This document shows positions 6,105-62,238 of a stretch of DNA of 62,238 nucleotides, in pieces. The translations under genes were made by a program, and so were the position numbers. Each line of letters begins with the position of its first letter. Position 1 is the stretch's first letter. The DNA comes from a virus (taxonomy: Duplodnaviria > Caudoviricetes): positions 1 through 62,238 of IMG/VR virus record IMGVR_UViG_3300038300_000076; one strand, 5' to 3'. Below the pieces are notes generated by a model that saw only the letters and a program-made list of their open reading frames with translations, was not told the origin of the DNA and ran no database searches.

Positions 6105-6320
6105 TTATCTGCAGCCACAGCTGCAATTCCCACATAAATTTCTACCACAAACCATTGGGCCATGTGTTTCGCCACAATTGAAAGTTGCCTTTGTTCCACA
6201 TCTACATTTTAAATTCTTATGCCTTTCGCAATTAATCTTTTTACATTTTCCAACCCAACATTCAAGGAATCCGCAGACTTCACTTGAAATTACTCCATCT
6301 AAAAATTTATCATTGTTCAT
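6105..6320 (-). CDS. Cys-rich (Zn-binding) hypothetical protein
   Basis: Multiple CxxC/CxC; probable start MNNDK. Confidence 0.55.
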   Translation of the reverse strand: MNNDKFLDGVISSEVCGFLECWVGKCKKINCERHKNLKCRCGTKATFNCGETHGPMVCGRNLCGNCSCGCR

Positions 6321-22315: not shown

Positions 22316-22326
22316 TTATATCTCCT

Positions 22327-29713: not shown

Positions 29714-30064
29714 TTAATCTTCCTCATCCTCATTCTCTTTTCTTGTTTCTGACATATTCTTAAGATCACTCTTGATTGAATCCCAATCGTCCTCATCATA
29801 AGCATCAACAAGTTGATCTAGTAATGAACCATAGCCTTTCCAATAACCCTCAGCCTCTCTAAGATCAGTCTCTAGTTGCTTAATCTTTTCTTCTACAGCT
29901 ACAACTTCATTTTGAGCTAATATACATATCTTTCTGTCTTTGTCAAGTATATCTTGCATCTTAGTATAATTTGATCCTGCCATACACACCTGATTACGAA
30001 GATGTTTAATTTCATTATAGTTTATAATGATTTTTCTTATTTCTTCCGTCATGACAACTTCCAA
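29714..30064 (-). CDS. coiled-coil hypothetical protein
   Basis: ORF track. Confidence 0.65.
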   Translation of the reverse strand: MEVVMTEEIRKIIINYNEIKHLRNQVCMAGSNYTKMQDILDKDRKICILAQNEVVAVEEKIKQLETDLREAEGYWKGYGSLLDQLVDAYDEDDWDSIKSDLKNMSETRKENEDEED

Positions 30065-30546
30065 GGATTTTTTAAGATATTAATGCAGTCATTTGCCAAT
30101 TCATCAGTAAGGCCATCCCCAATGGGCTGAACATGAATATGGAATAACTCCTCTACATTCATAGGAATATCGTCTAGGATAACTGCGTGAGTGTAATCAG
30201 GATGATCATTAAGCCAAGCCAAACATCCAAAATATCTGCCAAATCCAGTAGTATTATAACCTACTTCCATAACATTTATTCCAAACAGCTCAGAAACTTC
30301 TATGTGATCTTTTTTGAGAGTAAACCAAGATGATATACCAACTATATCACAATTGGATTCTTTGACGACTGACTTTAATCTGTTTATCTTTTCTACTGAA
30401 ACTGGTGTGTTTCCAAACCTCTTTCCAATAATAAATTTACCAGAACATTCGCCACTACCACCTTTTTTCATTTCTCCATAAGCAGAATCAAAATCAGATC
30501 CATCATTTAAAACATCATCTATATCTAAAAACAAAACTTTTTTCAT
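30049..30546 (-). CDS. HAD-domain protein (RNA-repair Swiss-Army-knife type)
   Basis: KVLFLDIDDVLN, IV.ISSW, WL..HP, VILDD, GLT; start reset to MKKVLF after an AAGGAG SD. Confidence 0.8.
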   Translation of the reverse strand: MKKVLFLDIDDVLNDGSDFDSAYGEMKKGGSGECSGKFIIGKRFGNTPVSVEKINRLKSVVKESNCDIVGISSWFTLKKDHIEVSELFGINVMEVGYNTTGFGRYFGCLAWLNDHPDYTHAVILDDIPMNVEELFHIHVQPIGDGLTDELANDCINILKNPWKLS

Positions 30547-30577
30547 ATTGTCATACTCCTTTGAGTATAGGTAAAAA

Positions 30578-30788
30578 TTGTTCTTCCAATGGGCGTTACA
30601 GTCTTTCTCTTTCAAGTTAAGTTTGCGTCCTGCAGTTTTTAACAAAAACCAGTAATCAAACAACAGCCAACTCCAACTACAGAGTATCCCACCACTGGGG
30701 TTTCACTTGGGCTGGCGAGTATGAATCGAACCTTTCCAGCTTGCATTAGTCACTTGTGCCTCACGATTCATCTGAGGTGGAAGAACAA
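30578..30788 (-). ncRNA. unidentified structured RNA, about 211 nt, downstream of tRNA-Met
   Basis: 11-bp perfect terminal stem; hairpins CCUCA/UGAGG and GCUGG/CCAGC whose loops are complementary over 8 nt; GC-richer than flanks. Confidence 0.7.
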
Positions 30789-30813
30789 AATGTTTATATT
30801 TCTTTAAAACTTA

Positions 30814-30888
30814 TGGCGGAGGAAGGATTCGAACCTACGACCTTCAGGATATGAACCTGACGAGCTGACCGGACTGCTCTACTCCGCT
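30814..30888 (-). tRNA. tRNA-Met(CAU), initiator-like; CCA not encoded
   Basis: Cloverleaf: A1:C72 mismatch, GAGC/GCUC D-stem, UCAGG-UU CAU AU-CCUGA, GGUUCGAAUCC. Confidence 0.93.
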
Positions 30889-30958
30889 ACACTAAAACTA
30901 ACTTCTTCACTATAAACCACTGTAATGTATATTTCAAATGTATTTTGGCATATATTAA

Positions 30959-30993
30959 TAAAAAAGCCCCACTATTTACAATGAGGCCTTTTT
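30959..30993 (-). terminator. intrinsic terminator
   Basis: Imperfect GC stem with flanking A/T runs. Confidence 0.5.
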
Positions 30994-30994
30994 A

Positions 30995-31456
30995 TTATGC
31001 ATATGTTAGCTTTAAAACTCCAACAATTTCATCCATTGATTCGAACACCGGAATATCATTCCTCTTACATACGATATCAACATTTCCCTTTTTCCAATAG
31101 CCCTTTGGACAACACACAAGAACTTTTCCACTCCCTGCGTTTAACCCAAGCTCCAACAATGAAATAGGCGCTTGGCTCTCCTTTGAGAAATACAAAACAA
31201 TTGTATCACATACATCAAGTGAATCCAACTCCCAATTAACCTGCTTACTAAACTCTTCATTTTCAATTTCTTGTTTCCATGAAGAATCCCAATCAGGCCT
31301 TCTTGGATTTAAATAAGTTATATTTAAATCTTTTGTCTTTTTAAACATCTGTTGTTGCCAATCAACAGCTTTTCCCATGTCAATCGAACCAGCCATAAAT
31401 ACCGTTGCCGTTTTAGCTTGGCTAATATCATCTGGGGCATAAATCATTTCTGCCAT
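30995..31456 (-). CDS. nucleoside 2-deoxyribosyltransferase-like protein
   Basis: VFMAGSI...WQ, NPRR..WD, QV.WEL, PISLLELG, GNV; start reset to MAEMI. Confidence 0.85.
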   Translation of the reverse strand: MAEMIYAPDDISQAKTATVFMAGSIDMGKAVDWQQQMFKKTKDLNITYLNPRRPDWDSSWKQEIENEEFSKQVNWELDSLDVCDTIVLYFSKESQAPISLLELGLNAGSGKVLVCCPKGYWKKGNVDIVCKRNDIPVFESMDEIVGVLKLTYA

Positions 31457-31520
31457 AATAATAATTCCTTTAGTTTTAAAACTAACTATACAGTTATTCT
31501 TAAAGATATTTATAAAATAC

Positions 31521-31560
31521 AAAAAAAAATCCCTCTGCGTATCTCACACAGAGGGATTTT
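31521..31560 (-). terminator. intrinsic terminator
   Basis: AATCCCTCTG/CAGAGGGATT stem. Confidence 0.75.
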
Positions 31561-31701
31561 GAATTCTTATACTGAAATTATCACTAACATTTTTCCATCT
31601 TAGATAAATGCTTAATAAGGCAGCCCCATAGAAATTTATCTTTGGAAGAACTTAAATATACTACCGATTTCTCAAATTACAAGTTTTTATACTAATTTAA
31701 T

Positions 31702-33348
31702 TTAAGATTTTTTGTAAGCACATCCATGAGATCCTTCCACTTTAATTCCTAAATGCTTCTCAATCAAGGCCCTTCTCTGCTCTAATATTCTTTCAGAAGC
31801 TGGAAATCTTTCCCCTTCTCTGTGAATTGTTTTAGGCATTTCATCAAAGTCTTTCATTATTCTATTCTTAATAGTCATGAAGTCATCTTCTACTGGCTTT
31901 CCAAATGGCTCGTTTATATTAGAACCATCAAAAAATACCTTTAAAACATTTTCTTCATCAGGAAACTCATCCATCTTGACGATAGTTACTTTTTCCTGCA
32001 ACGCTCTTTCACTTCTTAAAAGTTTGAACGGGCCGGGTAAAGTTGCCTTTCCTTCTACTTCTGAAAGCTTAATAACTCCTTCATCATTTTCCTTGGCACA
32101 TAAGGCATACTTGGCAGAGAAGTTATCTCTTTTCAAAGAATTTCTCAATCCACCACCAACTCCAAATGGACACCAATCAAGAGGAGAGAATCCTTCTTCC
32201 TCAAGAGCATCATAGATTTTATCCATTAGATCAAAGGTCATTCCATCTCCTTCAATCAACTTTAAAGTTGTAGGATATTTAAAATCGCCAATTTGAACAT
32301 AAAGACCATTTTCAACAGCAAGATTTACAGTCCAAAGAACTTGATCAAGAGCATCTCCAGAATCTGGACGAGATACTACAATCTTATTCTCATTGTTATT
32401 AGAACTCTTCAAAGCTAACGGTAAAAGATAATCCTCTACTGCTCTTTTATAGTTATAACAATCTGCAACCATAGAAAGAATATCTCCTTCTTGGCCCTTT
32501 TCATAAAGATTTGTATAACAATCTTGCTCGTTATTCCAAGGCTGTACAATTCGGTGAGCTAAAGCAAATACAGAAGATGCGCCAGTTGGCTTCTTTCCAT
32601 TCAACACATAAGCTTGATAAGCTCCTGTAACAGTGTCTGTACCGCCAAACACATAAGACTGAGACAATCCCATACGCTGACTCTCTTCTTCACAAATACC
32701 AGCTCTATCACCGAAATCATGCAAAGATACGCTAACCAAGAAGTCAACTTCATCTTCTGACAAGTGTGGACTTACTCTCTGCACTCTTTCCTTCAATCTC
32801 TTAAACCAATGTCTTGCAACCGTTGTTCTTTCACTTGTAGCCCAGATCTGAAGTATCTTAGACTCAAAATAAGCAGCCAATTCACCAAATCCATCTTCCA
32901 TTGAAGTTATTTGAACAACTGGCTCATTTGGGTATGCAACACTTCCTTCTGGAAGGGCTTCAATCTTTATTGGAGGTCTTCCATTGAACTCATCTACGAC
33001 TCTTCTCCAGATATCTTCTGGGAAAGGGAATTTCTTTAAGCCAGTCAATGTTGCTTTGAAATTCGCAAGGAATCTCTTAGCTTCATCAATCTCTTCATGA
33101 GTTACAGGCTCATAGAACAATTCCTCAAGGATTCTTGAAAGCCCCATGACAATCATTCTATTGTCGCCTTTTTCAAAAACAGTTGGATTGATGGAATGAA
33201 GATCTTTTCTATATGTAATGTAATACGTTGATTTTTTCTTTGCAGACTTACATTGAAATTCCTCACTGCAAATCGTATATGCGTCCGCCATTAATATTCT
33301 TGGCGTCTTTTCAATATTTCTTTTTGGTAATTTAACATTCTTATTCAT
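31702..33348 (-). CDS. nadV: nicotinamide phosphoribosyltransferase (NAMPT)
   Basis: ADAY, PIKIEALPEG, LHDFGDR, GTDT, S.VADCY, RPDSGD, EGDG, FGVGGGL, RD. Confidence 0.88.
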   Translation of the reverse strand: MNKNVKLPKRNIEKTPRILMADAYTICSEEFQCKSAKKKSTYYITYRKDLHSINPTVFEKGDNRMIVMGLSRILEELFYEPVTHEEIDEAKRFLANFKATLTGLKKFPFPEDIWRRVVDEFNGRPPIKIEALPEGSVAYPNEPVVQITSMEDGFGELAAYFESKILQIWATSERTTVARHWFKRLKERVQRVSPHLSEDEVDFLVSVSLHDFGDRAGICEEESQRMGLSQSYVFGGTDTVTGAYQAYVLNGKKPTGASSVFALAHRIVQPWNNEQDCYTNLYEKGQEGDILSMVADCYNYKRAVEDYLLPLALKSSNNNENKIVVSRPDSGDALDQVLWTVNLAVENGLYVQIGDFKYPTTLKLIEGDGMTFDLMDKIYDALEEEGFSPLDWCPFGVGGGLRNSLKRDNFSAKYALCAKENDEGVIKLSEVEGKATLPGPFKLLRSERALQEKVTIVKMDEFPDEENVLKVFFDGSNINEPFGKPVEDDFMTIKNRIMKDFDEMPKTIHREGERFPASERILEQRRALIEKHLGIKVEGSHGCAYKKS

Positions 33349-33406
33349 TTTTCTATCCTTAGATTTATTTACGCTCTTTAAAGTCTTGATAACTTAATTC
33401 CATTTA

Positions 33407-34357
33407 CTACTTTGTCAATCCAGAATCATTGCTGAATCCAAGATTTTCTAATAATTTTTCTACTAACGGAATATGCCAAGGCATTACTAGGTCTACGAGA
33501 TCTTCAAGTTTTACCCATTTAAGTTCATAGATATCATCTGCTGGCTCAGGCCTTCCATATACATGTTTTGCCTTGAAAAACGTAGTAATAATGTTATCTT
33601 TTTCACTTCTATAACGCCAATCTTCAACGAAGAAACTTCCAACATACTCAGGAGTGCTAACTTCAATGCCAGTTTCTTCCATAACTTCTCTTCTGGCATT
33701 TTTCTCTAGAGCGTTTGAACCGCTTTTGCTTGGATCTACAAATCCACCAATGAAAACTAACTTGTCTTGATTTCTCTTTTTACCAAGCAAGACATTCTCT
33801 CCAGCTTCATCTAAGATCGCAACATCAACTGTTGGATATGCCGTTGGGTATTGATTCCCAGTTGCCCAAATTACTCCTTTTCTAAAGTCCTTGGAATCAC
33901 TAATATTTAACTTAGCTCTTCTTCTTACTTCAGTTCCAGATATAACCGAACGACTCAATAATTCTTTTGTATCATGCTTTCCATGATAATGTGACATAAA
34001 GCTGTCACGGCATCCATAAAGAATTACTTTCTCATCAAATGGGACGTGTTTGCTAAGGATACTATCAAGCGTGTTAGACCAATCTTGATCTGAGGGTTGA
34101 TCTTCAATATAATGACACTCAATTTCAGGATCGAAATCTTCAATCATTTTCTTACGTGCTTGAAAGTTTAACGGATTGTTCTTACTTGCTTTCAGTGGAG
34201 ATAATCCCAACAGAACAATTACTTTGTCATGTCTGGACTTCACTGTGTTTAGTAATTCTTTATGCCCATCATGTAACTCTGGGACTTGGAATCGCCCTAC
34301 TAAGGCTCCTATTCCACCAATTACTATCTCTTCTTCCTTTGTCTGTAGCATTCGCAT
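33407..34357 (-). CDS. nadM: bifunctional NMN adenylyltransferase / Nudix ADP-ribose pyrophosphatase
   Basis: GRFQV..LH.GH, NPL, SGT..R; TVDV, GGFVD...ARREVMEETG Nudix box. Confidence 0.9.
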   Translation of the reverse strand: MRMLQTKEEEIVIGGIGALVGRFQVPELHDGHKELLNTVKSRHDKVIVLLGLSPLKASKNNPLNFQARKKMIEDFDPEIECHYIEDQPSDQDWSNTLDSILSKHVPFDEKVILYGCRDSFMSHYHGKHDTKELLSRSVISGTEVRRRAKLNISDSKDFRKGVIWATGNQYPTAYPTVDVAILDEAGENVLLGKKRNQDKLVFIGGFVDPSKSGSNALEKNARREVMEETGIEVSTPEYVGSFFVEDWRYRSEKDNIITTFFKAKHVYGRPEPADDIYELKWVKLEDLVDLVMPWHIPLVEKLLENLGFSNDSGLTK

Positions 34358-34469
34358 CTCCTTGCATCTTAGCTAATTTAGACTATGTATTTAACATTAA
34401 GACCGCATCATTGCAAATCTTCTTATGTTGCTCTTACTATATCACTGCTTTTAATGCTTTACAAGCTCA

Positions 34470-35489
34470 TTACTTGTTTTTAATTTTATTGGGAACTACT
34501 TCTTGCATCTTCCAGTTATGTACACTGTCAGCAACATGATTTTCTCTTACATACTTTGCAATACTTTTTCTGAATGCTCCATATGAGAATCCATCCGTCA
34601 CTCTTACAACAAATCCTTCTTCCTTGTCGGTATTCAGATTCTCAGCAATTGAGACTATCTTTTCTTCATCCCATATTCCACGATAAAGCTCTGGAACTGT
34701 AGATAATCCCAACATTTCAGCATACTCTTTGGTTTCATCCCATGATAAACAATAGTTCTTTTCATTCCATATTGAAAACAAATAAAAGAAACTTTCTAAA
34801 TCATCATATGCAATTGCATGCTTGGCATAAACATTTTCACCACAAAGTCTCCAATTGTCAGGAATCTCCCAACCAATTCTAGAAGCAAAGTTTTTAACCC
34901 AAGCCCTTGATGGATGAGAATCATTCTCTAATGATCTTGCATGAGTGTATTCTTGATAAATAGAAGTATTCTCCCCATCCATTTTTGATGTGACAACAAC
35001 TTCCAATCCTTCAAACTGAGAACAATCTTTTAAAGTACGATCATCGTTTGTCTTACTTGCTGAAAATGGAAGATGATATGTCCTTGGATATTTCACATAG
35101 TCTGTAAAAAGATGAAGGAATGGCTTCATTATCTTTTGAACACTCTCATCATGAAACAATTCACCTTTGACTCTTTGTTTGTTAGGCAATATGATATTAC
35201 CCCACTTGTCATAAGTGTTATCTCTGTATAAATGCTCAGGAAGAATAACCTTCTCAATACCACATGCTTCACGCAATTCATCACAGCCTATTTCAGTGCT
35301 CTCAGATGCAAGATGGCAAGGGCCGCAAACAGATGCGCCATTATCTAAGTAATAGCCGCAGCTTACGCCCCACAGTCTTCTCTCTAGAATATGATGAGCA
35401 TCTTGAGCATCTTCACCACAGACAACACATTTATGCTTGTCTCTTGCAAAAACTCCCTCTCTAAACTCATCTCTTGTTAATAATTTCAT
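34470..35489 (-). CDS. HNH nuclease - RNA ligase fusion
   Basis: CVVCG...DAHH...NG..VC..CH; KYPRTYHLP.S, KMDGEN, GEN, EGFVVR, AKYVR. Confidence 0.85.
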   Translation of the reverse strand: MKLLTRDEFREGVFARDKHKCVVCGEDAQDAHHILERRLWGVSCGYYLDNGASVCGPCHLASESTEIGCDELREACGIEKVILPEHLYRDNTYDKWGNIILPNKQRVKGELFHDESVQKIMKPFLHLFTDYVKYPRTYHLPFSASKTNDDRTLKDCSQFEGLEVVVTSKMDGENTSIYQEYTHARSLENDSHPSRAWVKNFASRIGWEIPDNWRLCGENVYAKHAIAYDDLESFFYLFSIWNEKNYCLSWDETKEYAEMLGLSTVPELYRGIWDEEKIVSIAENLNTDKEEGFVVRVTDGFSYGAFRKSIAKYVRENHVADSVHNWKMQEVVPNKIKNK

Positions 35490-35506
35490 TTTAATATTTT
35501 CCCAAA

Positions 35507-35794
35507 TTAAAACTTATCTAAGTCTTTACTTTCTTTTTTTAATCCCCTTACGTGCTTGAGTGCAATCTTAGCTTCTGGATGTTGCTTTAACGCCAAGTCA
35601 GCCAAATCTCTCAGCTCTTCTTTTGTTATGTATCCGTCAGCCCTCATCATCCCATAAGTCCTAGACAACGTGCAGTCGTCATGGTCGTGATAATTGCTAT
35701 ATATATGGTAAGCTTCTGCGTTATAGTACTCGCTGTCTTGTGGATTACATCCAGCGAGTATAATTATAACTATTATTAAGTATCCTATCTTCAT
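35507..35794 (-). CDS. putative lipoprotein
   Basis: Signal peptide with LAGC lipobox. Confidence 0.7.
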   Translation of the reverse strand: MKIGYLIIVIIILAGCNPQDSEYYNAEAYHIYSNYHDHDDCTLSRTYGMMRADGYITKEELRDLADLALKQHPEAKIALKHVRGLKKESKDLDKF

Positions 35795-35797
35795 TGT

Positions 35798-36256
35798 TTA
35801 TCCAAGTTTTGATTTTACAATTTCAGACAACAATTTTCCATCTACATCCAGATCAAGAGAAGAAATGATATTCCTTGCTTCCTTCATTACCATTCCCATC
35901 TCTTTCATAGTTGTGGCCGATACTGCTGAGATTGCTCTGTCAACTGCATCCTTAGTTTGTTCTTCACTTGCAGAATTAGGAAGGTAAGATTCAAAAACTT
36001 TCAATTTGGCACTATATGAATTTACTTGCTCTTCATATCCTTCTGCCTTTCCAAATGCATCTATTGATTCTTTGCATTCTTTTACACACTTCTTGATAAT
36101 ATTAATTATCTCAGCATCATCAATATCCTTCTTTCTTCCCTTCTTCGTTTCTGCATATTGAATTGCACCACGTACATCAGAAATAGCTTCCTTCGCATTG
36201 GCATTCTTCTCTTTCATTGCAGTCATATATTCTTTCTTAAGTCTTTCTACCAACAT
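35798..36256 (-). CDS. yqeY: GatB/YqeY domain protein
   Basis: AMKEK, SYLP, KEMG.VM, DGK.LS.IVK.KL. Confidence 0.9.
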   Translation of the reverse strand: MLVERLKKEYMTAMKEKNANAKEAISDVRGAIQYAETKKGRKKDIDDAEIINIIKKCVKECKESIDAFGKAEGYEEQVNSYSAKLKVFESYLPNSASEEQTKDAVDRAISAVSATTMKEMGMVMKEARNIISSLDLDVDGKLLSEIVKSKLG

Positions 36257-36268
36257 AAAACTTTCCTT

Positions 36269-36661
36269 TTATTTATTCCCATTTAATCTCTTGTTAGCCT
36301 GTCTTTGCAAGGTTTCATCTGTGCTTATAAAAATAGATTGTAAAATTTCATCCCAGTGAAGTTCTTTATCACTCTTAACACACGAATAAGACTCCAATCC
36401 ATCATAATCGTCAATGGAAAAAGATGGAGAGTAGTGTTCTTCATCAACGAAGAAAAAGGCATCGATTAAAACCCTTGTAATAAATATCACTTCGCCTTCC
36501 TGCATCCCTCTCCATCTCCCCCAGTCATCACTATAGTTAATGCCAACCTTAAGACGAAACATCCTCCACTCCAAATCTCTATCATTCAATAGATATGGAA
36601 ATTCTTTATCCAAAACTCCATCTAGGAATCTTCTGTTATAAAGTTTACGATTTAAGTTCAT
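36269..36661 (-). CDS. hypothetical protein
   Basis: ORF track. Confidence 0.65.
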   Translation of the reverse strand: MNLNRKLYNRRFLDGVLDKEFPYLLNDRDLEWRMFRLKVGINYSDDWGRWRGMQEGEVIFITRVLIDAFFFVDEEHYSPSFSIDDYDGLESYSCVKSDKELHWDEILQSIFISTDETLQRQANKRLNGNK

Positions 36662-37407
36662 GTGAAATATAAATGCTGAATTCTATCTACAAGATGTAGA
36701 ATTGTAAAATCACATATTTCCTTTACCACTTCTATACTTTCTTGAATCCCTTCTTCATTCTGCCCTTTAAGAATTTTATTTGCTAATTCCAACAGAGCTT
36801 CATTACTTAAATCAGAATTCAATCTTAAATATTCTCTCTCAGCAGAATCAATTGGATCTTCATTACTTGAAACCAACTCTTCTTCAATTACTTCCGGCTC
36901 TTCCTTGAGAAGATCTTCCATTCCTTTAAATACAGGCTGAAATAGCATTCCTTTTGCATTTGAGGATTGATTGACTTCTGAAAGCTCCTCAATTATCTCC
37001 TTTTCTACTTCTGGAGAAATTTCTGCTTCTGGAAAAAGTTCATCATGCAATCTCTCAAGCTCATCAAGTTCTAATAAAACATCCTCTTCTTTCGAAGAAT
37101 CTTCCTTTACAACAACTTTGGTAGTTTCTCTTATTCTAACGTAACTCTTAATATGCTCCATTGGATGCGTTTCAGTCATCTCAATCCAAAAGTCATAGAA
37201 CTTATTTCCCCCTGCGCCTTCTCCGCGTTTTCTTGATTTTCTGGCCGTAGCAAGGAAATGTCCCAAAGATTTCTCTTTTGCATCTTTAGAGCTTACTCTT
37301 GGCCTCCTTCCGTTCACTTCCCCCCAAGAAATTGTCTCCGTCATTCTCCTTTCAGCTTTTTTCCTATTCTTAGCTGCTAACTTTGCTTCTTTGCTTTTTT
37401 CTTGCAT
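36658..37407 (-). CDS. hypothetical protein, basic N-terminus (helicase-associated-domain-like) and acidic C-terminus
   Basis: GRRP...S.D..EK.LG.FL...RK. Confidence 0.6.
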   Translation of the reverse strand: MQEKSKEAKLAAKNRKKAERRMTETISWGEVNGRRPRVSSKDAKEKSLGHFLATARKSRKRGEGAGGNKFYDFWIEMTETHPMEHIKSYVRIRETTKVVVKEDSSKEEDVLLELDELERLHDELFPEAEISPEVEKEIIEELSEVNQSSNAKGMLFQPVFKGMEDLLKEEPEVIEEELVSSNEDPIDSAEREYLRLNSDLSNEALLELANKILKGQNEEGIQESIEVVKEICDFTILHLVDRIQHLYFT

Positions 37408-37477
37408 ATCATTAGTCCTGTTTTATTTTTAAAATAACATTCCTAATTGAAAATGCAAACACATTGATTAAAATAAA

Positions 37478-37816
37478 TTAGTCTTTTCTGAAAACTCCCA
37501 ATAACTGATCACTAGAATCTCTTGATTTCATTACAGAATAAGCCCTTTCAGCAAAATCATTTCTAATCCAACGAGTATTTGTCTTCTTATTTACACTGCA
37601 TAAGATTCCAATTTCCATCTCAGAAGTGTTCCAATTTAGAGCCATCATCATGCCAACTAAGAAGTCAGTAGATACTTCCTTTAAATCAATATCAAGAAGG
37701 CAGTTATGCAACTCCTCCAATCGCTCTTCCTTGGCTATCTCAAAACTCCATATTATCATTGTATCTGATGGATTTTCCATAGTGGAGAATTCTTTTAAAT
37801 CTTCTTTCATACTCAT
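37478..37816 (-). CDS. hypothetical protein
   Basis: ORF track. Confidence 0.65.
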   Translation of the reverse strand: MSMKEDLKEFSTMENPSDTMIIWSFEIAKEERLEELHNCLLDIDLKEVSTDFLVGMMMALNWNTSEMEIGILCSVNKKTNTRWIRNDFAERAYSVMKSRDSSDQLLGVFRKD

Positions 37817-37838
37817 TGAATTTTTCCCATGTTATCAT

Positions 37839-37870
37839 AAAAAAACCGCTAGGAAATTAATCCCAGCGGC
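37839..37870 (-). terminator. intrinsic terminator after tmRNA
   Basis: CCGCT/AGCGG stem plus T-run on the minus strand. Confidence 0.7.
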
Positions 37871-37875
37871 ACAAG

Positions 37876-38233
37876 TGGAGGCGGAGGGAGTTGAACCCTC
37901 GTCCTAAACAATCTTACAATCAAAACTTCTACATGTTTAGTTTTTATTTTGCAGCTCTTAGAGCAAACTCTTAGGATTTAACTGTCTAATAAAAACAAAC
38001 CTTGCTAAATCTTGCCAGTTCTTAGTTTCAGTCAGCTGATTGAACAACATCAACCTCCTATTCGATAAAATGATGCCCTTGCCTGATTATCGAAGTCTTC
38101 AGGTAGGACAGCAGCCCTTAGGCTGCGATAGCTAGTGTTTCGCCAGTTATCAGTTTGATCCATTTTAAAGTATTTAGACCAATTACTACATGCAATCTTG
38201 TGCTCAATTTCTAGTCGAATCCATTTCGCCCCC
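37876..38233 (-). ncRNA. ssrA: tmRNA, tag (A)GETLAIAA
   Basis: 5' GGGGGCGAAAUGGAUUCGAC; 3' GAGGGUUCAACUCCCUC CGCCUCC A with G3.U70; AUAACU-GGC resume context; tag ORF at 38118-38144 with stop-codon hairpin GCAGCC/GGCUGC. Confidence 0.95.
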
Positions 38234-38500: not shown

Positions 38501-39169
38501 CTAGCAATTATGATCTTCATACTCAATTGGATCTTTGATATTGTTTAACTCAAAGGCTTCCAATCTTTCCGTGCAACTACCACATTTCCCACATGAAGCC
38601 TCCTGATCCTTATAACAAGTACGAGTTAATTCATAAGGAACATTATTCTTTAATCCCCATTCTATAATAGAAATCTTATCACCTGTTAAAAAGGGAGCCA
38701 ATACTTCTACTTTGTTTTCAGTAGACGCGCCAATGACTGTTTTTAACGCTTCCACAAACTCAGGACGACAATCTGGATATATAGCATGATCGCCAGAATG
38801 GACTCCAAGGGCAATACAGCTCGCTCCTCTGCTCTCGGCTATAGATGCGACTATAGATGCAAAAATAAGATTTCTTCCGGGTACAACAGTTAAACTCATA
38901 TTCTCCTGTTCATAATGCCCCTCAGGTATCTCATCTCCACTCTTCAATAGATTTGAATTCAAATCAGCCATGAATCCTTCCAGCTCGTAAACTTTGAAAG
39001 GGACTTTATAATGCTTGGATATTTCCCAAGCAGCATTGTTCTCATAAACATTGTGCTTTGATCCATAAGAGAATCCAATACACTCAACATCATAACCTTC
39101 ATCTATCATCTTTGCTAGAACAGTGGCTGAATCCATACCGCCACTTAATGAAACTATTGCTTTAGACAT
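38501..39169 (-). CDS. queC: 7-cyano-7-deazaguanine synthase
   Basis: SGGMDS, VPGRNLIF, YPDCRPEF, TCY...CGKCGSC.ER. Confidence 0.95.
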   Translation of the reverse strand: MSKAIVSLSGGMDSATVLAKMIDEGYDVECIGFSYGSKHNVYENNAAWEISKHYKVPFKVYELEGFMADLNSNLLKSGDEIPEGHYEQENMSLTVVPGRNLIFASIVASIAESRGASCIALGVHSGDHAIYPDCRPEFVEALKTVIGASTENKVEVLAPFLTGDKISIIEWGLKNNVPYELTRTCYKDQEASCGKCGSCTERLEAFELNNIKDPIEYEDHNC

Positions 39170-39677: not shown

Positions 39678-41963
39678 TTAAACAATGATGTCTAATTTAA
39701 GCTCATCGTTCTTAACAGTTACTTTGACAACTCCGCCATTCTGAAGGTCTCCAAACAATATGGAATCAACTAGGGGCTTGAAGATATGAGTTTCGACAGC
39801 TTTCTTCATTGGACGAGCGCCCATTTTAGAATCAAAACCCTTCTCGGCTATCCATTTCTTTCCAGCCACTCCGATCTTAATCTTAATGTTCTTTTTGCCA
39901 AGCTGCTGAACCCTTTCATTGATAAATTTCTCTACGATCTTCACCATGAATGTACTATCAAGAGCACCAAATGTAACAATTGAATCCAAACGATTTCTAA
40001 ACTCAGGGCTAAAATGCTTTTCTATAGCCGCATTACTTACTCTTGGTTTACCACCCTTAGATCCAAATCCTACAACTTTAGAATCAACCGAACTAGCACC
40101 GACATTAGATGTCATGATGATAACCGTATTGCGGAAGTCAGCTTTGCGCCCTTGGTTATCAGTCAAAAATCCGTAGTCAAGCACTTGAAGCAGCACATTA
40201 TAGATATCTGAATGAGCTTTTTCAATCTCATCAAACAGGATAACAGAGTTTGGATTCTTAATAACAGCTTCTGTCAATTGACCGCCTTCCTCATATCCAA
40301 CATACCCAGGTGCAGATCCTGTAAGCTTTGACACAGCAACCTTTTCCTGATATTCTGACATATCAAATCTAAGCATCTTACAGCCAAGATTATCAGCAAG
40401 CTGTTTAGCTACTTCAGTCTTGCCTACACCTGTTGGGCCTGTGAACAAGAAAGATCCAACAGGGCGGTTTTGATCACGTATCCCTGCACGAGAGGCCTTC
40501 ACACATTCAACTACTTTAGTGACAGCATCATCTTGACCAAAAATCTTTGATCTCATCTTTTCTTCCAGACTTTTCAACATGTCTTTATCAGATTCGCCAA
40601 CTTTTACTTCTGGAATTCTAGCAAGTCTGGCCACAATCTTTTCAACATCTTCTACGGTGATTACCTTCTTGCGCTTCTTCTTACTCAACAAAGCATTTGC
40701 AGCTCCAGCCTCATCAATAATATCAATCGCTTTATCTGGAAGGAATCTATCCGTAATGTGATGATTTGAAAGTTCAACAGCATTTACGATTGCTTCATCT
40801 GGAAAAGTTACTCCAAAATGATCTTCATAGTTTGAACGCAACCCTTTGATAATTTTAATTGTATCTTCAACAGAAGGCTCTGGAACATCAACTTTCTGGA
40901 AACGTCTCTCAAGAGCCTTATCCTTGATGATATGATCTTTGTACTCTTTATAAGTAGTAGAACCAATACAGCGCAGTTTACCGCTTGCTAAAGCAGGCTT
41001 TAAAATGTTTGCAGCATCCATACTTCCACCAGATGAAGATCCAGCCCCAACAATGTTATGAATTTCATCAATAAAGATGATTGCTTTATTCATTCCTTTA
41101 AGCTCGTCAAGAACACCTTTAAGACGTTCTTCAAATTCGCCTCTGAATTTTGTTCCGGCAATCATTCCTGCCATATCAATTGCATAAATGTCATGGTTTT
41201 TCAGTTCGTCAGGAACTTTTCCATCTTTTATTTTAAGAGCCAATCCTTCCGCAATAGCTGTCTTACCAACACCGGGTTCACCAACAAGAAGAGGATTGTT
41301 TTTCTTTCTACGGCAAAGAGTTCTCATCAAATCTTGCAATTCATTCTCTCTACCAATAATAGGATCAATCCCTCCGTCTTTCGCTAACTTGGTCAAATTA
41401 ACCGAATATAGCTCCAATGACTTCTTTTTCTTTTTGCGCTCTTCTTGAGGTATTTCCTCACCCATATTAAATTCATCCTCATGAAAATCTTCTTCATTAA
41501 AACTACCAACTCCACCAGATATTTTGGAGATTTCCATCTTTAAAGCAAGTTCTTCAAGACCATTGTTCTTTAGAAAGTATAACGCATGGCTTTTTTCAGA
41601 AGAAAAGAATGACACTAGAACCATTGGACAATCAACGATATTTCTCCCCGAATGAACAGTTCTCTTTCCAGCATCTTCTAAAACTCTATTCATTCCAGGT
41701 CCCTGTATAAGATTCTCACCCGGTTTTATCAACTCCATATCGTCCTTGAAATACTTATTAAGATCATCATAAAGCTGATCAATATCTACATTGCAGCTCT
41801 CCATTAAATCTATTATCAGTTCATTATCCATCAAAGCACAAAGAAGATGCTCGACAACAATATATCTATTTTCATACTTCTCGCATATTTCTTTTGTCAA
41901 CGCGAAGGCATTTTTCAATCCATCACTAATATCTAATCTCATGGCCATTCTATTCCTCCTCAA
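39678..41963 (-). CDS. clpA: ATP-dependent Clp protease ATP-binding subunit ClpA
   Basis: Clp N-domain; GEPGVGKT and FIDEIH; GPTGVGKT and LFDEIEKAH; VGF ClpP-docking loop; no middle domain; directly after clpS. Confidence 0.95.
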   Translation of the reverse strand: MRRNRMAMRLDISDGLKNAFALTKEICEKYENRYIVVEHLLCALMDNELIIDLMESCNVDIDQLYDDLNKYFKDDMELIKPGENLIQGPGMNRVLEDAGKRTVHSGRNIVDCPMVLVSFFSSEKSHALYFLKNNGLEELALKMEISKISGGVGSFNEEDFHEDEFNMGEEIPQEERKKKKKSLELYSVNLTKLAKDGGIDPIIGRENELQDLMRTLCRRKKNNPLLVGEPGVGKTAIAEGLALKIKDGKVPDELKNHDIYAIDMAGMIAGTKFRGEFEERLKGVLDELKGMNKAIIFIDEIHNIVGAGSSSGGSMDAANILKPALASGKLRCIGSTTYKEYKDHIIKDKALERRFQKVDVPEPSVEDTIKIIKGLRSNYEDHFGVTFPDEAIVNAVELSNHHITDRFLPDKAIDIIDEAGAANALLSKKKRKKVITVEDVEKIVARLARIPEVKVGESDKDMLKSLEEKMRSKIFGQDDAVTKVVECVKASRAGIRDQNRPVGSFLFTGPTGVGKTEVAKQLADNLGCKMLRFDMSEYQEKVAVSKLTGSAPGYVGYEEGGQLTEAVIKNPNSVILFDEIEKAHSDIYNVLLQVLDYGFLTDNQGRKADFRNTVIIMTSNVGASSVDSKVVGFGSKGGKPRVSNAAIEKHFSPEFRNRLDSIVTFGALDSTFMVKIVEKFINERVQQLGKKNIKIKIGVAGKKWIAEKGFDSKMGARPMKKAVETHIFKPLVDSILFGDLQNGGVVKVTVKNDELKLDIIV

Positions 41964-52505: not shown

Positions 52506-52955
52506 TTACAAAACGTATACTTTTACTTCAATGTCTCCAAAAACATCATTTATCATTCCTTCAACTTTTCCCCAGTTACCACCTGCCAAACCACAGCCAA
52601 TCTTTGGAAGAGCTAAAGTGTAATCATTCTCAACAACAAACTCTTTTAACTTCTCAAGACAAATATCCAGAGCATCATAATCAAGAGGCTTAGTGTGCCT
52701 GCTGTAATCATATTGAGTATAGCAGTTTGCCACTACTTTAATTTTCTTACTATCTACATTTACAAAATCCACTTCGCCAAGCTTATGTTTTGTAGTGTAT
52801 CCACCCATAAATGTATTATCAGCAGCTCTTACTCTTGAAAACTTCTTTGTAATTACTTTAGCTATGCCTGACTTCATTGTACATTTGCAATTACAACCAT
52901 GAGCTATTACTTCGCAATTCGTTTTAAGCAAATCGCCTTTTATATATGTAATCAT
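52506..52955 (-). CDS. macrodomain (ADP-ribose binding/hydrolase) protein
   Basis: GDLL, IAHGCNC...M.SGIA, N.YTQ, LPKIGCGLAGG.W. Confidence 0.9.
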   Translation of the reverse strand: MITYIKGDLLKTNCEVIAHGCNCKCTMKSGIAKVITKKFSRVRAADNTFMGGYTTKHKLGEVDFVNVDSKKIKVVANCYTQYDYSRHTKPLDYDALDICLEKLKEFVVENDYTLALPKIGCGLAGGNWGKVEGMINDVFGDIEVKVYVL

Positions 52956-53155
52956 TTCACTTCCTCTTTAAATCCTATAAACAAACAATATTTTCTTTGC
53001 TTTATCTTTTTATCAAACCTCTTATTTACATAACAGCATATCCTGCCCTCAACCCATGAATGTGGACTGCCGCCAAGCTCAACAAGTCTCCAATATCCCC
53101 AATTGATTGATGTATCCCAACATAAAGTTGGATAATCTTTTGACTCTTTAAGCAA
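52952..53155 (-). CDS. small hypothetical protein (C-terminal YCLFIGFKEE)
   Basis: ORF track. Confidence 0.6.
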   Translation of the reverse strand: MLKESKDYPTLCWDTSINWGYWRLVELGGSPHSWVEGRICCYVNKRFDKKIKQRKYCLFIGFKEEVK

Positions 53156-53176
53156 TATACTTATTCCTTCTTAAAA

Positions 53177-53538
53177 TGGTGCGTGAGGAAGGATTTGAAC
53201 CTCCGACTTATTTGACCTACTCGCAAGGTACTTTGACTAGTATTTCCACTTACTCTTCACTCAAATAAACTCTCATAGAATACTGATCTTCGACTATATT
53301 ACAAGTATTTACTTACAGTACTATCTTTATTCTTCTTCTTGTAAGAACAATACTTTAAGATAGATACATACATCATTCTCTATAATTAGATGTCATGCCT
53401 CCTAAAGTATTTCTTGTAATATTTTTTAACGTCTTCTCATTATCATTATAAAAAGATCATCTATGTCTCTTTCCCCATACAGCACGTCTTGCAAGACCGT
53501 TCTGCGTAAGGATTAAGCCCAAACTGAGTTACTCACGC
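53177..53538 (-). ncRNA. giant tRNA-like RNA (362 nt) with expanded D-loop and anticodon arm
   Basis: Acceptor GCGUGAG/CUCACGC + A + encoded CCA; U8A9; D-stem ACUC/GAGU enclosing 253 nt; UUAUUUGA/UCAAAUAA enclosing 45 nt; T-arm GGAGG-UUCAAAU-CCUUC. Confidence 0.8.
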
Positions 53539-53548
53539 ATAAATTAAC

Positions 53549-53821
53549 TTATTTCTCTATTGACACTGTCATTAAATACTCATTTCTATGGTTACTCTCA
53601 TCTACCACATATCCAGATTTCTTTAATTCTTTTACAACAGCTGGACTTATAGATGAATAAATGTGAAAAGTTTTTTTCTCTTCCCTTATCATTGTCTCAA
53701 TGGCCTCGGCTACCAAAATTCTCTCCAGATCTGCCCTGTCATTCTTTGCTTCTGATACTTCCTTGCTCGCTTGAGCTGCTGACTTAAACATATCACTTCC
53801 CTCCGTTTCTTTCAAGTTCAA
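53549..53821 (-). CDS. hypothetical protein
   Basis: ORF track; true start probably MFKSA. Confidence 0.65.
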   Translation of the reverse strand: MNLKETEGSDMFKSAAQASKEVSEAKNDRADLERILVAEAIETMIREEKKTFHIYSSISPAVVKELKKSGYVVDESNHRNEYLMTVSIEK

Positions 53822-59231: not shown

Positions 59232-60284
59232 TCAAATACTACAGCCGCCTCCAGCGCAACCCTGATCAGAATCATTCTCTTCCGACTTTCCATCATACGT
59301 ATTTAAATAATACAAAGTCTTGAGTCCAATTTTATAAGCATATAGAATATCTTTTACGACAACTGACAATGGTATGTTATTGTCAGGATACCTTGAGTAG
59401 TCATAATACTGATTGCTTGAAATAGCTTGATCCATATACTTCTGTGCTATTCCCATTATATTCATATATCCCGTATTATTTTCCATTTCCCAAGAAGTTT
59501 CATAATATTTCCCCAATGTTTGGAAATCTGGAACAACTTGTTTGAGAATACCCTTCTTTGACTTCTTCTGGGACATTAAGGCTCTCGGAGGCTCCATTCC
59601 ATTAGTTGCATTGGAAACTACACTAGAGCTCTCAGAAGGCATCTGTGCTGACAGTGTGGAGTTTCTTAAACCATGTTCTTTAATGTCAGCTCTTAATCCT
59701 TCCCAATCAAGAGAAAGAGGTCTGTCGCAAATAGTATCTAAGAAAGACTTATAAGTATCAATAGGCAAAATTCCCTGAGAATACTTCGTTCTGTCGAAGT
59801 AGCCACAAGGCCCTTTTTCTTTCGCAAGATTATTAGATGCCTTTAATAAATTAAACTGCATACACTCCATCAGCTCGTCTACCAAATGAATTGAATCAGG
59901 ACTTGAATATGTAACTTTATTCTTTGCCAAATAATGAGCCAAACCAATGACTCCAATACCTAAAGATCTTCTATTTAAAGTAGAATTCTTTGCTGCCAAT
60001 ATTGGATACTCTTGAAGGTCAACAATCTCGTCAAGAGATCTTACCGCTAAATCCGTAAGCCCTTCAACCTCATCTAAGCTTTTCAGCCTTCCTACATTCA
60101 AAGCAGATAATATACAAAGAGCAATCTCTCCATCTGGATCATCTGGATGCGTTAAAGGCTTAGTCGGGAGAGTTATTTCTTGGCAATTATGTACTAATAT
60201 TTTATTAGCATAAAAATTATGATTATCTTCTACCGTGATGTCGTACACATCCTCTGTTTCTTCTAAATATTCTATTTTTAACAT
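59232..60284 (-). CDS. nrdA: class Ia RNR alpha subunit, C-terminal part with N-terminal split-intein IntC (33 aa)
   Basis: VYDITVEDNHNFYAN.ILVHN|CQEI; ALCILSA, RSLGIG, MPSESSS...NATNG.EP, KTLYY, C-terminal CAGGGC. Confidence 0.95.
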   Translation of the reverse strand: MLKIEYLEETEDVYDITVEDNHNFYANKILVHNCQEITLPTKPLTHPDDPDGEIALCILSALNVGRLKSLDEVEGLTDLAVRSLDEIVDLQEYPILAAKNSTLNRRSLGIGVIGLAHYLAKNKVTYSSPDSIHLVDELMECMQFNLLKASNNLAKEKGPCGYFDRTKYSQGILPIDTYKSFLDTICDRPLSLDWEGLRADIKEHGLRNSTLSAQMPSESSSVVSNATNGMEPPRALMSQKKSKKGILKQVVPDFQTLGKYYETSWEMENNTGYMNIMGIAQKYMDQAISSNQYYDYSRYPDNNIPLSVVVKDILYAYKIGLKTLYYLNTYDGKSEENDSDQGCAGGGCSI

Positions 60285-61269
60285 TATTTCTTACCTCTTC
60301 CTAATTCTAAATATTGAGCTACTTTATCAATATTCTCTTGTGTCATTTTATACTTTAAATCTTTCATAGTTAAATTAAATCCTCTTTTATTTAACTCTTT
60401 TAAAACTAAACCTTTAAACAGATTAAAATTCCCACTAAAACGATTTTTACTAAAGCTTTGCGGATAACCATTCTCTCCTGCAAACCTCATCCATTGTCTT
60501 CTGCTGAATGTCTTTGTTTCCAGATACATTTTAACTGCTGCATTGACTACTTCATCATCTGAATGTCCTGAATGATTTGGATTTTTAGAACCAACTGTAG
60601 CTTGAGATCTTAACTTTAAATATTTCTCCAACCTCCAACCACTAAGATTATTAGCAATATTTCCACCATCTCCACCTTCAGTCATATTATAACCTTTTTT
60701 GTAAGTGTTGAAATGTGCGATAAAATGCATTTCTCTTTCTTTGGCCTCTTCCTCTCCCTCACACATACACAGTAATTCGCTTACTAAGCCATCTAAGCCA
60801 TATTTTCTTATCGCCCTATAGAAATTAGTATCTAATCCTGATTCAGCGTTTAAGTTATGCTTATGCAGCCTTTCAGACATAGTAAAGTGAGTAAATCCAA
60901 TATAGGATTTACCACTCGACTTGAATGTATGTTTATAAATTGAATACACTACTACTTAATATCCAACTCATCATCTGAGCGAAGGTCTTTAGCCTCTACA
61001 TATCCACGATTCTTAGTGAACACTTTATGCTCTGGAGTACATCTTATTGAAAATCCAGTTTCTTCATCTGTTATCTTCATCAACTTGGCGTTCTTAGCCG
61101 TTATTGCTGATGCCGTTACAGGTTTATATTCAATTCCTCCAGATTCAACATCCTTTGAGAGAACAGAAACTGACTTTCCATCTTTAAAGGCATCGTTCAA
61201 TTCTTTAAGTTGAATACTTACAAGTTTTCCATCGATTTCTACGTCAACCATAGTATCACCAGTTAAACA
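60186..61269 (-). mobile_element. split intein + homing endonuclease cassette (fractured gene)
   Basis: IntN 60955-61269, GIY-YIG gene, IntC 60186-60284, inserted at the SNL/C site. Confidence 0.9.
60284..60949 (-). CDS. free-standing GIY-YIG homing endonuclease
   Basis: SIY..T...GKSYIG.T, R...H, AIRKYG, E..FI......GYN.T.GG; lies between the intein halves. Confidence 0.88.
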   Translation of the reverse strand: MYSIYKHTFKSSGKSYIGFTHFTMSERLHKHNLNAESGLDTNFYRAIRKYGLDGLVSELLCMCEGEEEAKEREMHFIAHFNTYKKGYNMTEGGDGGNIANNLSGWRLEKYLKLRSQATVGSKNPNHSGHSDDEVVNAAVKMYLETKTFSRRQWMRFAGENGYPQSFSKNRFSGNFNLFKGLVLKELNKRGFNLTMKDLKYKMTQENIDKVAQYLELGRGKK

Positions 61270-62238
61270 TAAGTTTGACATTCTTATCTTATCTAAAAAA
61301 GAACTGTGAGAATTGCAATGATCTATATTCATAATATAAATACGACCAGTTTCAATTCTTTCCTTAACAATCTCAAGGAAAAGTTTCATTGCATTTATTT
61401 TGTTTTTTTTGATATTATGGCGTCTTTCACACTTTTCATACACTTCTTCAAAGCTACTTGTTCCAAAAGCTTCTTCAAGCTCTGGTACTTCGTGTGGGGA
61501 AAAGACGGTAATTTCTTCATTTGCCAAAGCTCTCTTGTAAAACAGTTCACACATTTGAATTGAGTAGTCTAACTTTCTTACTCTGTTTTCATCTGTTCCT
61601 TTGTTGTTCTTCAATACAATGATATCTTCTATCTCTGCATGCCAGAATGGGAAATGAACAGTGGCCGATCCGCCCCTCACACCATTTTGAGTACATGACT
61701 TAACAATTGACTCATATACTTTTAAAAATGGAACAACGCCAGTGTGAACTACTTCTCCTTGGCGAATACTTGACCCAATCGCACGTATACCGCCCAGATT
61801 AAGGCCTATCCCTGCTCTTTGTGCCGTATATCTAGTTACACTGTTAAATCCAGATGTAAGGCTGTCTAGACTATCTGCTACATCAACAAGAACGCAAGAT
61901 GAATACTGCCTTAATGGAGTTCTTGCTCCACACATAACAGGAGTTGGAATATTAAGCTTGAATAGTGATATTGCATCATAGTACTTCTTCACATAGTCTA
62001 ATCTTGTTTCCGCTGGATAATTCATAAACAATGTAGCCGAAATCATCATATACATATATTGCGGAGTTTCATATATCTCATTGATATCTCTATTCTTGAG
62101 TAAATACTTATCGACAACCTGCTGCAGTCCTGCATATGTAAACTCAAAATCTCTTTTGTGATTTAAATATCCATTTAGCTTGTTTATCTCTCTCTCTGTG
62201 TATTTTTCTAAAATTAACGGATCATAACAACCATTTTC
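60952..62238 (-). CDS. nrdA: class Ia RNR alpha subunit, N-terminal part with C-terminal split-intein IntN (105 aa); 5' end outside window
   Basis: ETPQ, PTPVM, QYSSCVL, TQNGVRGG, RMSNL|CLTGDT...CTPEHKV...GYVEAKDL; the frame is open to the window end. Confidence 0.95.
   Translation of the reverse strand, partial: ENGCYDPLILEKYTEREINKLNGYLNHKRDFEFTYAGLQQVVDKYLLKNRDINEIYETPQYMYMMISATLFMNYPAETRLDYVKKYYDAISLFKLNIPTPVMCGARTPLRQYSSCVLVDVADSLDSLTSGFNSVTRYTAQRAGIGLNLGGIRAIGSSIRQGEVVHTGVVPFLKVYESIVKSCTQNGVRGGSATVHFPFWHAEIEDIIVLKNNKGTDENRVRKLDYSIQMCELFYKRALANEEITVFSPHEVPELEEAFGTSSFEEVYEKCERRHNIKKNKINAMKLFLEIVKERIETGRIYIMNIDHCNSHSSFLDKIRMSNLCLTGDTMVDVEIDGKLVSIQLKELNDAFKDGKSVSVLSKDVESGGIEYKPVTASAITAKNAKLMKITDEETGFSIRCTPEHKVFTKNRGYVEAKDLRSDDELDIK

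Follow-up and report, generated by a model that had tools for sequence, protein, structure and literature searches.

Location and tRNA frame of a 362-nucleotide RNA

We identified a 362-nucleotide (nt) region with the frame of a transfer RNA (tRNA) on the minus strand of the phage record IMGVR_UViG_3300038300_000076, all 62,238 nt of which were analysed and are referred to here as the window. The region fills the gap between an upstream open reading frame (ORF) at 53549-53821(-) and a downstream one at 52952-53155(-), starting 10 nt past the stop codon of the former and ending 21 nt before the start codon of the latter, in the same orientation as all surrounding genes. It is non-coding, with at least four TAA triplets in each of the six frames, and coding under a reassigned stop codon was rejected on the same count. 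A small ORF behind an AGGAGG (RNA 136-141) was also rejected, as it has a spacing of 1 nt to its AUG and only 7 codons. No promoter-like or terminator-like site belonging to the RNA itself was found. The RNA is read from 53538 to 53177, RNA position p being 53539 minus the coordinate, and the features discussed below are listed in Table 1.

Direct reading and pairing checks recovered every element of the tRNA frame that an initial annotation of this DNA had listed. The acceptor stem consists of seven Watson-Crick pairs (53532-53538 with 53181-53187), the third of them G3-C70, and is followed by the discriminator A73 at 53180 and by an encoded CCA at 53177-53179, unlike the tRNA-Met and the transfer-messenger RNA (tmRNA) of the same window. 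U8-A9 lie at 53531-53530 and the D-loop opens with AGUUUGG at 53519-53525. The D-stem has four Watson-Crick pairs between ACUC (53526-53529) and GAGU (53269-53272), two strands that are 253 nt apart. The T-arm (53188-53204) has five pairs, one of them G-U, around the loop UUCAAAU. The tertiary interactions of the class-I tRNA core and elbow are textbook knowledge, and on direct reading their residues are in place: U8, A14, A21, G15 with C48, G18-G19, U12-A23 with A9, C13-G22, G53-C61 and the UUCAAAU T-loop itself.

Set against the Rfam tRNA family (RF00005), the region has two faces. It carries the 7-bp acceptor stem with discriminator and 3' CCA and the 5-bp T-stem with a 7-nt UUCRANY-type loop. 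Its D-arm has the stem and the start of the loop, but that loop is 253 nt long rather than about 7-11 nt, and in place of a 5-bp anticodon stem with a 7-nt loop and U33 there is an 8-bp stem around 45 nt.

Structured inserts in the D-loop and the anticodon position

The D-loop insert, a hairpin and a rod of about 245 nt together, exits just after G19, which is the pocket where the length of the D-loop naturally varies. The rod is built from helices at RNA 74-86/249-265, 117-126/234-243 and 128-138/180-190. Among these, the 10-bp helix (53413-53422 with 53296-53305) is 100% complementary and is included in the set with ensemble probabilities of 0.9-0.99, while an 11/12-bp helix joins 53400-53411 to 53349-53360. 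Pair probabilities were 0.98 for the segment labelled rodC and 0.6 for rodA/B; the 11-bp helix reached 0.22, its competitor being the pairing 130-134/225-229. Folding and inverted-repeat analysis thus confirmed hairpin 1, the two basal rod helices and the 10-bp and 11/12-bp helices of the initial annotation. An 8-bp complementarity between the apex of hairpin 1 and RNA 312-319 was set aside, since by our estimate about 24 such matches are expected by chance.

One residue past the D-stem begins an 8-bp, 100% complementary stem (53261-53268 with 53208-53215) that encloses the 45 nt. Inside it, a 7x7 internal loop rich in purines leads to a stem of 5 bp, and a GAAA bulge separates this from a 4-bp stem capped by a 6-nt loop. 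The internal loop holds an AGUA/GAA arrangement that might be loop-E-like. A canonical anticodon loop is absent, as had been noted from the start, and neither direct reading nor in-silico deletions revealed a contiguous excision of the arm insert that would leave a canonical 7-nt anticodon loop. There is no second copy of the insert within the window, and direct reading showed no target-site duplication at either insert border.

Table 1. Positions of the 362-nt RNA, its parts and other features of the window
Feature	RNA positions	Coordinates	Strand	Remarks
Whole tRNA-framed RNA, 362 nt		53177-53538	-	
Acceptor stem, 5' strand GCGUGAG	1-7	53532-53538	-	pair probability 0.99
U8, A9, D-stem 5' strand ACUC, D-loop start AGUUUGG	8-20	53519-53531	-	
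Hairpin 1	22-72	53467-53517	-	relatively G+C-rich; palindromic apex; bulged C33; pair probabilities 0.98-0.99
Rod of nested helices	74-265	53274-53465	-	
Rod apex, variable part	139-179	53360-53400	-	
A21 and D-stem 3' strand GAGU	266-270	53269-53273	-	unchanged in the X4 relative
Anticodon-like arm	271-331	53208-53268	-	pair probabilities 0.92, 0.90, 0.79
Variable-loop GUC and T-arm GGAGG-UUCAAAU-CCUUC	332-351	53188-53207	-	pair probability 0.88
Acceptor 3' strand CUCACGC, discriminator A, CCA	352-362	53177-53187	-	
ATE/Bpt-like aminoacyl-tRNA-protein transferase		6310-7011	-	
NADAR domain		9934-10413		
ClpP and ClpA/B-type double-AAA ATPase		18248-18853, 39678-41963	-	
Translation/RNA-repair island		30049-38233	-	HAD domain of RNA-repair proteins, tRNA-Met, RNA ligase, YqeY-like, tmRNA
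tRNA-Met		30813-30889		ARAGORN and Rfam
NAMPT/NAPRT-like enzyme adjoining cytidylyltransferase-NUDIX (NMNAT-NUDIX) fusion		31702-34357	-	
tmRNA		37873-38233		131 bits; ARAGORN and Rfam
QueC		38501-39169	-	just beyond the translation/RNA-repair island
Macro domain		52506-52955		
Ribonucleotide reductase large subunit, three consecutive ORFs		59232-62055	-	
Intein C-half and ribonucleotide reductase C-part		59232-60284	-	
GIY-YIG endonuclease ORF between intein halves		60284-60949	-	
Ribonucleotide reductase N-part ending in intein N-half		60952-62055	-	

The frame and the fold against chance

The tRNA frame is far beyond chance. We scanned the window and 40 shuffled windows for a T-arm followed by a 7-nt strand with its complement up to 1200 nt upstream. 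The real window holds exactly two such frames, the 362-nt RNA and the tmRNA; shuffled windows held 0.9 each on average, and 0.025 when the CCA was included. Shuffling the inner 327 nt 40000 times produced a 4-bp D-stem at the correct spacing with an anticodon-type stem of 7 bp or more in 802 cases, U8 with an A-R-Y-Y-(N)-GG D-loop start in 76, and the D/anticodon junction jointly with the D-loop start in 1. A looser junction test (stem of at least 5 bp) was passed by 12% of the shuffles; the junction alone is therefore only moderately unusual, and it is the combination that counts.

The fold is also exceptional. The minimum free energy (MFE) of the 362-nt RNA is -93 kcal/mol (z = -4.54), and none of 100 shuffles was as stable. 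A separate control gave z = -5.4 for the RNA and -3.9 for the tmRNA, and 39 other same-strand windows of 362 nt had a mean z of -0.77 (standard deviation 1.12, minimum -3.42). Among the 362-nt stretches tested in the window the candidate RNA is thus the most strongly folded, exceeding the tmRNA. The next-lowest z scores, -3.4 and -3.0 (25 shuffles each), belong to two ORF-overlapping background windows at about 22000-22361 and 31000-31361 (-).

Relatives in public sequence collections

Public runs that match the window are seawater and marine-sediment metagenomes; no RNA run is among them, which is neutral as to transcription. Runs X2 and X3 contain pieces of the 362-nt RNA at 100% identity, and the marine-sediment run X4 contains a partial relative that is about 95% identical (pieces in the 90-95% band, contig depth 2). 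The RNA is not an assembly artefact, because X2 and X3 hold identical pieces and X4 a diverged relative.

The X4 relative comes in two pieces, RNA 1-130 and 179-300. Both borders of the D-loop insert are spanned and kept, as are the covered parts of the tRNA frame and hairpin 1. The sole change in hairpin 1 is C33 to A, at the bulge. Three changes are indels: one U is lost in an unpaired U/A tract, one A is gained in an A-run, and one AAG repeat unit is lost, which shortens a loop and keeps the helix. Two of the other substitutions, A213 to G and G214 to A, lie in a linker, and the last, U228 to C, in a weak hairpin of 4 bp. When the changes are placed on a cloverleaf model with the 11-bp helix, six of the seven events are unpaired or lie in repeat or homopolymer runs with the helix kept, the unpaired share of the covered positions being 35%; on the unconstrained MFE structure, four events hit pairs. 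These changes appear to favour, mildly, the helix nesting drawn in the initial annotation. Other parts of the insert are less constant. The rod apex (RNA 139-178) is diverged sequence, the contig being unlike the window beyond 53360 with the adjacent helix strand kept, and the sub-domain at 191-233 varies too. On the same contig, identity drops to less than 80% over 144 nt of the upstream ORF but holds in the mid-90s across the RNA. Stretches that X2-X5 leave uncovered were given no weight.

Further pieces from X4 and X5, at 53168-53207, were not counted as relatives, because they are parts of other tRNA genes of ordinary type from marine-sediment metagenomes. Over the T-arm and the 3' acceptor portion, these genes match the candidate at 30-32 of 33-35 nt, and one of them reads, from its loose end, as tRNA-Pro(UGG). 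The candidate's frame may derive from such a tRNA. When 185,579 species genomes were searched with a gapped pattern describing an ordinary tRNA that has the candidate's acceptor stem and D-arm start, there were 0 hits.

Searches elsewhere returned little. A blastn search with 501 nt against GenBank phages produced no match, and exact patterns in IMG/VR (the 3' 28-mer, the 5' 19-mer and a hairpin-1 19-mer) gave 0 hits each. Three JGI metagenome loci with the 5' 19-mer were dismissed as chance, since they share only the 19-mer and have no tRNA-like gene. We also followed proteins of the phage. In IMG/VR the macro-domain protein led to two distant loci (36-38% identity), from both of which a related RNA is absent, and the HD protein, a 467-aa protein and the NifS-like protein led to no loci. 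In tblastn searches of GenBank phages, the 467-aa protein had no hit and the ATE-like protein two hits at 24% identity. On this evidence the phage seems to have no cultured relative. Three viral records that share a 20-mer of the tmRNA, examined by BLAST, the frame finder and ARAGORN, showed only ordinary tRNAs, permuted tmRNAs and chance frames. One record found through this shared 20-mer (G003, 168 kb, loci L015-L023) is an unrelated, nearly complete phage with a permuted tmRNA and 38 ARAGORN tRNA genes, including two of undetermined anticodon and one tRNA-Pyl(cta).

Tests against known RNA families

Across the window, ARAGORN with default settings and Rfam at the gathering score found nothing beyond the tRNA-Met and the tmRNA, and default ARAGORN made no call at 53177-53538. 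The tmRNA matches the separate, true tmRNA that the initial annotation had described: it scores 131 bits and, on direct reading, has G3.U70 and no encoded CCA. In the 150-nt gap downstream of the tRNA-Met (30664-30812, -) we saw a T-loop-like GGTTCGATTCA at 30722-30732, one mismatch away from the motif; no tRNA was called in that gap.

Permissive Rfam searches (E <= 10, with hits of 16-19 bits listed) were run on stretches of 901 and 376 nt around the RNA. The tRNA model, whose gathering score is 29, reached 15.8 bits in a match confined to the 3' part, and the tmRNA, Intron_gpI (RF00028), group II, ribozyme and GOLLD/ROOL models had no hit at the locus. No known family matches it, which answers the Rfam check proposed earlier. 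Reading the 3' part alone as an 86-nt tRNA-Ala was rejected for mismatches in the acceptor, D and anticodon stems. In open-access papers and bioRxiv we found no description of a phage tRNA frame with a giant D-loop insert. The initial annotation had spoken of a new class of tRNA-mimic RNA; the part that stands is that no Rfam family or described layout matches, and the part that falls short is the class itself, for which there is only one close relative. A new class is plausible but unproven.

Genome context

CheckV estimates the record to be 17% complete, so the window is a fragment of a very large phage; end repeats are absent. The G+C content is 35% and the minus strand carries nearly all long ORFs. 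The tRNA-Met and the tmRNA lie in an island of translation and RNA-repair genes. Elsewhere, the ATE/Bpt-like transferase, ClpP and the ClpA/B-type ATPase could together form a phage-borne N-degron degradation kit, and the NAMPT/NAPRT-like and cytidylyltransferase-NUDIX genes resemble a two-gene pair for the salvage of nicotinamide adenine dinucleotide (NAD+). The ribonucleotide reductase locus resembles a fractured gene in which the intein is split and the homing endonuclease stands free. The window also encodes a sigma-70 factor, an HD_4 domain protein and a NifS-like enzyme. The neighbours of the 362-nt RNA, namely an HD_4-type phosphohydrolase, the macro-domain protein and small ORFs without a family, suggest a counter-defence setting; they prove nothing.

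Interpretation and alternative explanations

Our leading explanation, held tentatively, is that the locus encodes a non-decoding, tRNA-derived structured RNA that is released from an operon transcript by tRNA-processing enzymes. A class-I tRNA core, with acceptor stem, D-stem, T-arm and elbow nucleotides, would survive; a long branched arm would replace the anticodon loop, and a hairpin and a rod would emerge from the variable pocket of the D-loop. We infer from the sequence that the RNA would be transcribed as part of a minus-strand operon with its neighbouring genes, that RNase P would cut at G1, where the -1 base is U, and that 3' trimming would halt at the encoded CCA. The product would be a stable 362-nt species, an L-shaped tRNA core carrying two rods, that acts in trans. 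Its tRNA-like end could engage proteins that recognise the acceptor end or the elbow, and the two rods might confer a specific function, which could be to bind or sequester a partner or to serve as its scaffold. One such partner might be a host factor that works on the ends of tRNAs.

Charging of this RNA is speculative, because G3.U70, the alanine determinant, is absent and no anticodon is present. The suggestion that it donates an aminoacyl group to the ATE/Bpt-like transferase, made in the initial annotation, has lost ground: the link is weak because the transferase gene lies 46 kb away. A bolder version, which we regard as improbable, makes the RNA a tRNA-derived effector parallel to tmRNA, with an intact core, a free and possibly chargeable CCA end and two effector rods, kept off the ribosome. 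Such an RNA might soak up, as a decoy or sponge, host factors that attack the acceptor ends of tRNAs or modify them, or it might be a non-ribosomal aminoacyl donor for the transferase within the ClpA/ClpP kit. Both roles, decoy and donor, are speculation.

Several points weigh against a functional RNA of this kind. No homologue more divergent than about 95% identity was found in the IMG/VR, JGI metagenome and GenBank phage searches; the homologue search that had been proposed succeeded to the extent of one relative and returned no distant one. Because no distant homologue was found, the nested helices are without covariation support. The X4 contigs have a depth of 2, and three of the seven events are homopolymer or repeat indels that could be errors; only three of the four substitutions are unpaired (p ~0.13). 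The contrast in divergence between the RNA and the upstream ORF could reflect mosaic recombination rather than selection. The cloverleaf-constrained fold lies 2.4 kcal/mol above the MFE, and the D-stem has an ensemble probability of 0.02. Such a low value is expected because a short stem closes a large multiloop, and the reality of the D-stem rests on geometry and context, not on energy. The flanking small ORFs gave no informative family match.

The alternative that survives best, although we consider it rather unlikely, is a decayed tRNA gene whose structured, palindrome-rich insertions have no function of their own and which would serve at most as a cis-acting RNase P cut site separating messenger RNAs. 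It would account for an anticodon loop that cannot be restored, for the failure to find distant homologues in IMG/VR, metagenomes and GenBank phages, for the variation of the apex and of the 191-233 sub-domain in X4, and for the lack of a promoter or terminator. The genome also has mobile elements, as the GIY-YIG ORF between the intein halves of ribonucleotide reductase attests. However, all the nucleotides of the tertiary interactions and the encoded CCA are intact, which one would not expect of a dead gene. Among the stretches of the window that were tested, none folds more strongly than the inserts, their borders are kept in a diverged relative, and neither a second insert copy in the window nor a target-site duplication marks them as insertions. 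Phage genomes, moreover, rarely retain 360 nt of junk between tightly packed genes.

Less probable than a decayed gene is an interrupted one, in which the inserts are removed after transcription as one intron of about 278 nt or as two unconventional introns or excised sequences. The ARAGORN check proposed in the initial annotation bears directly on this. The program is silent by default, but with -ps80 -i0,400 it calls exactly 53177-53538 as a tRNA-Ala(tgc) with a 278-nt intron, placing the anticodon stem at CUUAC/GUAGG (RNA 29-33, 319-323) around a CUUGCGA loop. Bacterial tRNA group I introns have sizes in this range. Because UAC is present at the two junctions, the exact splice sites are ambiguous; in one register a U (in a U.G wobble of hairpin 1) precedes the 5' site and a G the 3' site, the arrangement that group I introns need, and in this register the C33-to-A change of X4 would fall inside the intron. 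Such a U/G junction is possible in one of four registers, and we estimate its chance expectation at about 1 in 5. The phage also encodes an RNA ligase and other RNA-repair-type domains.

Against splicing, the relaxed ARAGORN search makes 31 calls in the window, three of them at known RNAs, namely the tRNA-Met, the tmRNA and the present locus, and we take the other 28 to be spurious. The accessible part of a 2020 preprint by Williams notes ghost exons from ARAGORN, uses a permissive cut-off of 18-20 bits and places such introns in the anticodon loop of tRNA or the T-loop of tmRNA. The spliced product would have a D-stem with two of four pairs, an unstructured 11-nt variable region and no G3.U70. 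If the intron were real, a well-formed D-stem 3' strand and the 8-bp stem would have to lie within it by accident, which happened in 2% of shuffles. The long-range anticodon stem has a probability of 0.00, and forcing it raises the energy by 8.8 kcal/mol over the MFE. The 376-nt search at E <= 10 gave no hit to an Intron_gpI, group II or ribozyme model, and manual inspection turned up neither a P3-P7 pseudoknot nor a G-C guanosine site that could coexist with the strong nested helices. Once the D insert was deleted in silico, all that default ARAGORN called was a tRNA-Arg(gcg) with an intron of 35 nt, a reading that depends on three G-U pairs in one stem and on a variable region of 10 nt. No excision yields a clean tRNA.

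Group I and group II introns were rejected. A group I intron in the D-loop or at RNA 31-308 had no model hit and no P3-P7/P8 arrangement by hand. For a group II intron, whose border consensus is GUGYG...AY, the region is too short, no model was hit and no such borders occur at the D insert. The archaeal-type bulge-helix-bulge motif is a 4-bp helix between two 3-nt bulges at the exon-intron borders. A relaxed search for it returned 28 motifs in the RNA and is non-specific; the two at the borders of the D insert consist mostly of G-U pairs, and their use would delete G18-G19.

That the locus is an element acting at the DNA level, as a site of replication, packaging or recombination, or resembles a tRNA by chance, is in our view very improbable. 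The region is A+T-rich and has many inverted repeats, but a T-loop, an acceptor stem, a CCA and a D-loop in combination are an RNA-specific feature that lies far outside what chance gives, and the orientation matches that of all surrounding genes. A second, divergent tmRNA-like rescue RNA, to which the equal size class (362 versus 361 nt), the tRNA-like ends around a large structured insert and the presence of a true tmRNA in the same phage might point, is largely refuted, as the initial annotation had held, by G3-C70, by a D-stem and a D-loop insert together with an anticodon-type arm that give a differing topology, by ARAGORN -m finding no tag in the 362-nt RNA, by the lack of an Rfam tmRNA hit at E <= 10 and by an alignment with the phage tmRNA in which likeness is confined to the T-arm.

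Comparison with known systems

By analogy, the closest functional counterpart of the proposed non-decoding RNA would be tmRNA, and the closest structural counterparts would be intron-bearing tRNA genes. Like tmRNA (SsrA, RF00023), the candidate is about 360 nt long, has acceptor and T-arm ends around a structured insert, is phage-encoded and is presumably matured by RNase P. However, tmRNA lacks a D-stem and has its insert in place of the anticodon arm, whereas the candidate has a D-stem and an anticodon-type arm and bears its bulk in the D-loop; it also has G3-C70, no tag frame and no predicted pseudoknots, and is recognised as tmRNA by neither Rfam nor ARAGORN. The accompanying tmRNA indicates a bacterial host.

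Bacterial tRNA and tmRNA genes with group I introns resemble the candidate in having tRNA exons parted by 200-300 nt of structured RNA. Unlike them, the candidate has nested rods rather than a P3-P7 pseudoknotted core and a site in the D-loop, and its spliced product would be a poor tRNA. Bulge-helix-bulge introns need a splicing endonuclease that, to our knowledge, is not known in bacteria. As far as the accessible literature describes them, the bulge-helix-bulge tRNA introns of archaea and red algae may also be multiple within a gene and include D-loop positions; unlike in such genes, removal of the inserts from the candidate leaves no anticodon.

Among phage RNAs, RNAC and RNAD of phage T4 have tRNA-like ends. 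In the accessible parts of two papers (PMC3014915, PMC9697503) they appear as stable RNAs of unknown role that are tied to tRNA genes; they are much smaller than the candidate, and no giant D-loop insert is described for them there. GOLLD and ROOL are large structured RNAs, often phage-borne and near tRNA genes, which the accessible text of PMC12286853 presents as RNA-only homo-oligomers. They lack a tRNA frame with a free CCA end, and their Rfam models miss the candidate.

In conclusion, the anatomy of the 362-nt RNA is striking and statistically solid, and its basis is a single lineage. Non-decoding tRNA-shaped RNAs are few, and each of them (tmRNA, viral tRNA-like structures, Y-RNA-like RNAs) has opened a field. 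If the region were a decayed gene, it would show that tRNA finders and Rfam miss heavily interrupted tRNA frames, and if it were an intron-bearing tRNA, a new position or type would be added to those of bacterial-type tRNA introns. If it is the non-decoding structured RNA that we tentatively propose, it would represent a new architectural solution, a whole tRNA core with about 245 nt emerging from the D-loop pocket and a replaced anticodon, and it would provide a handle on how giant phages use their translation- and RNA-repair-related gene sets.

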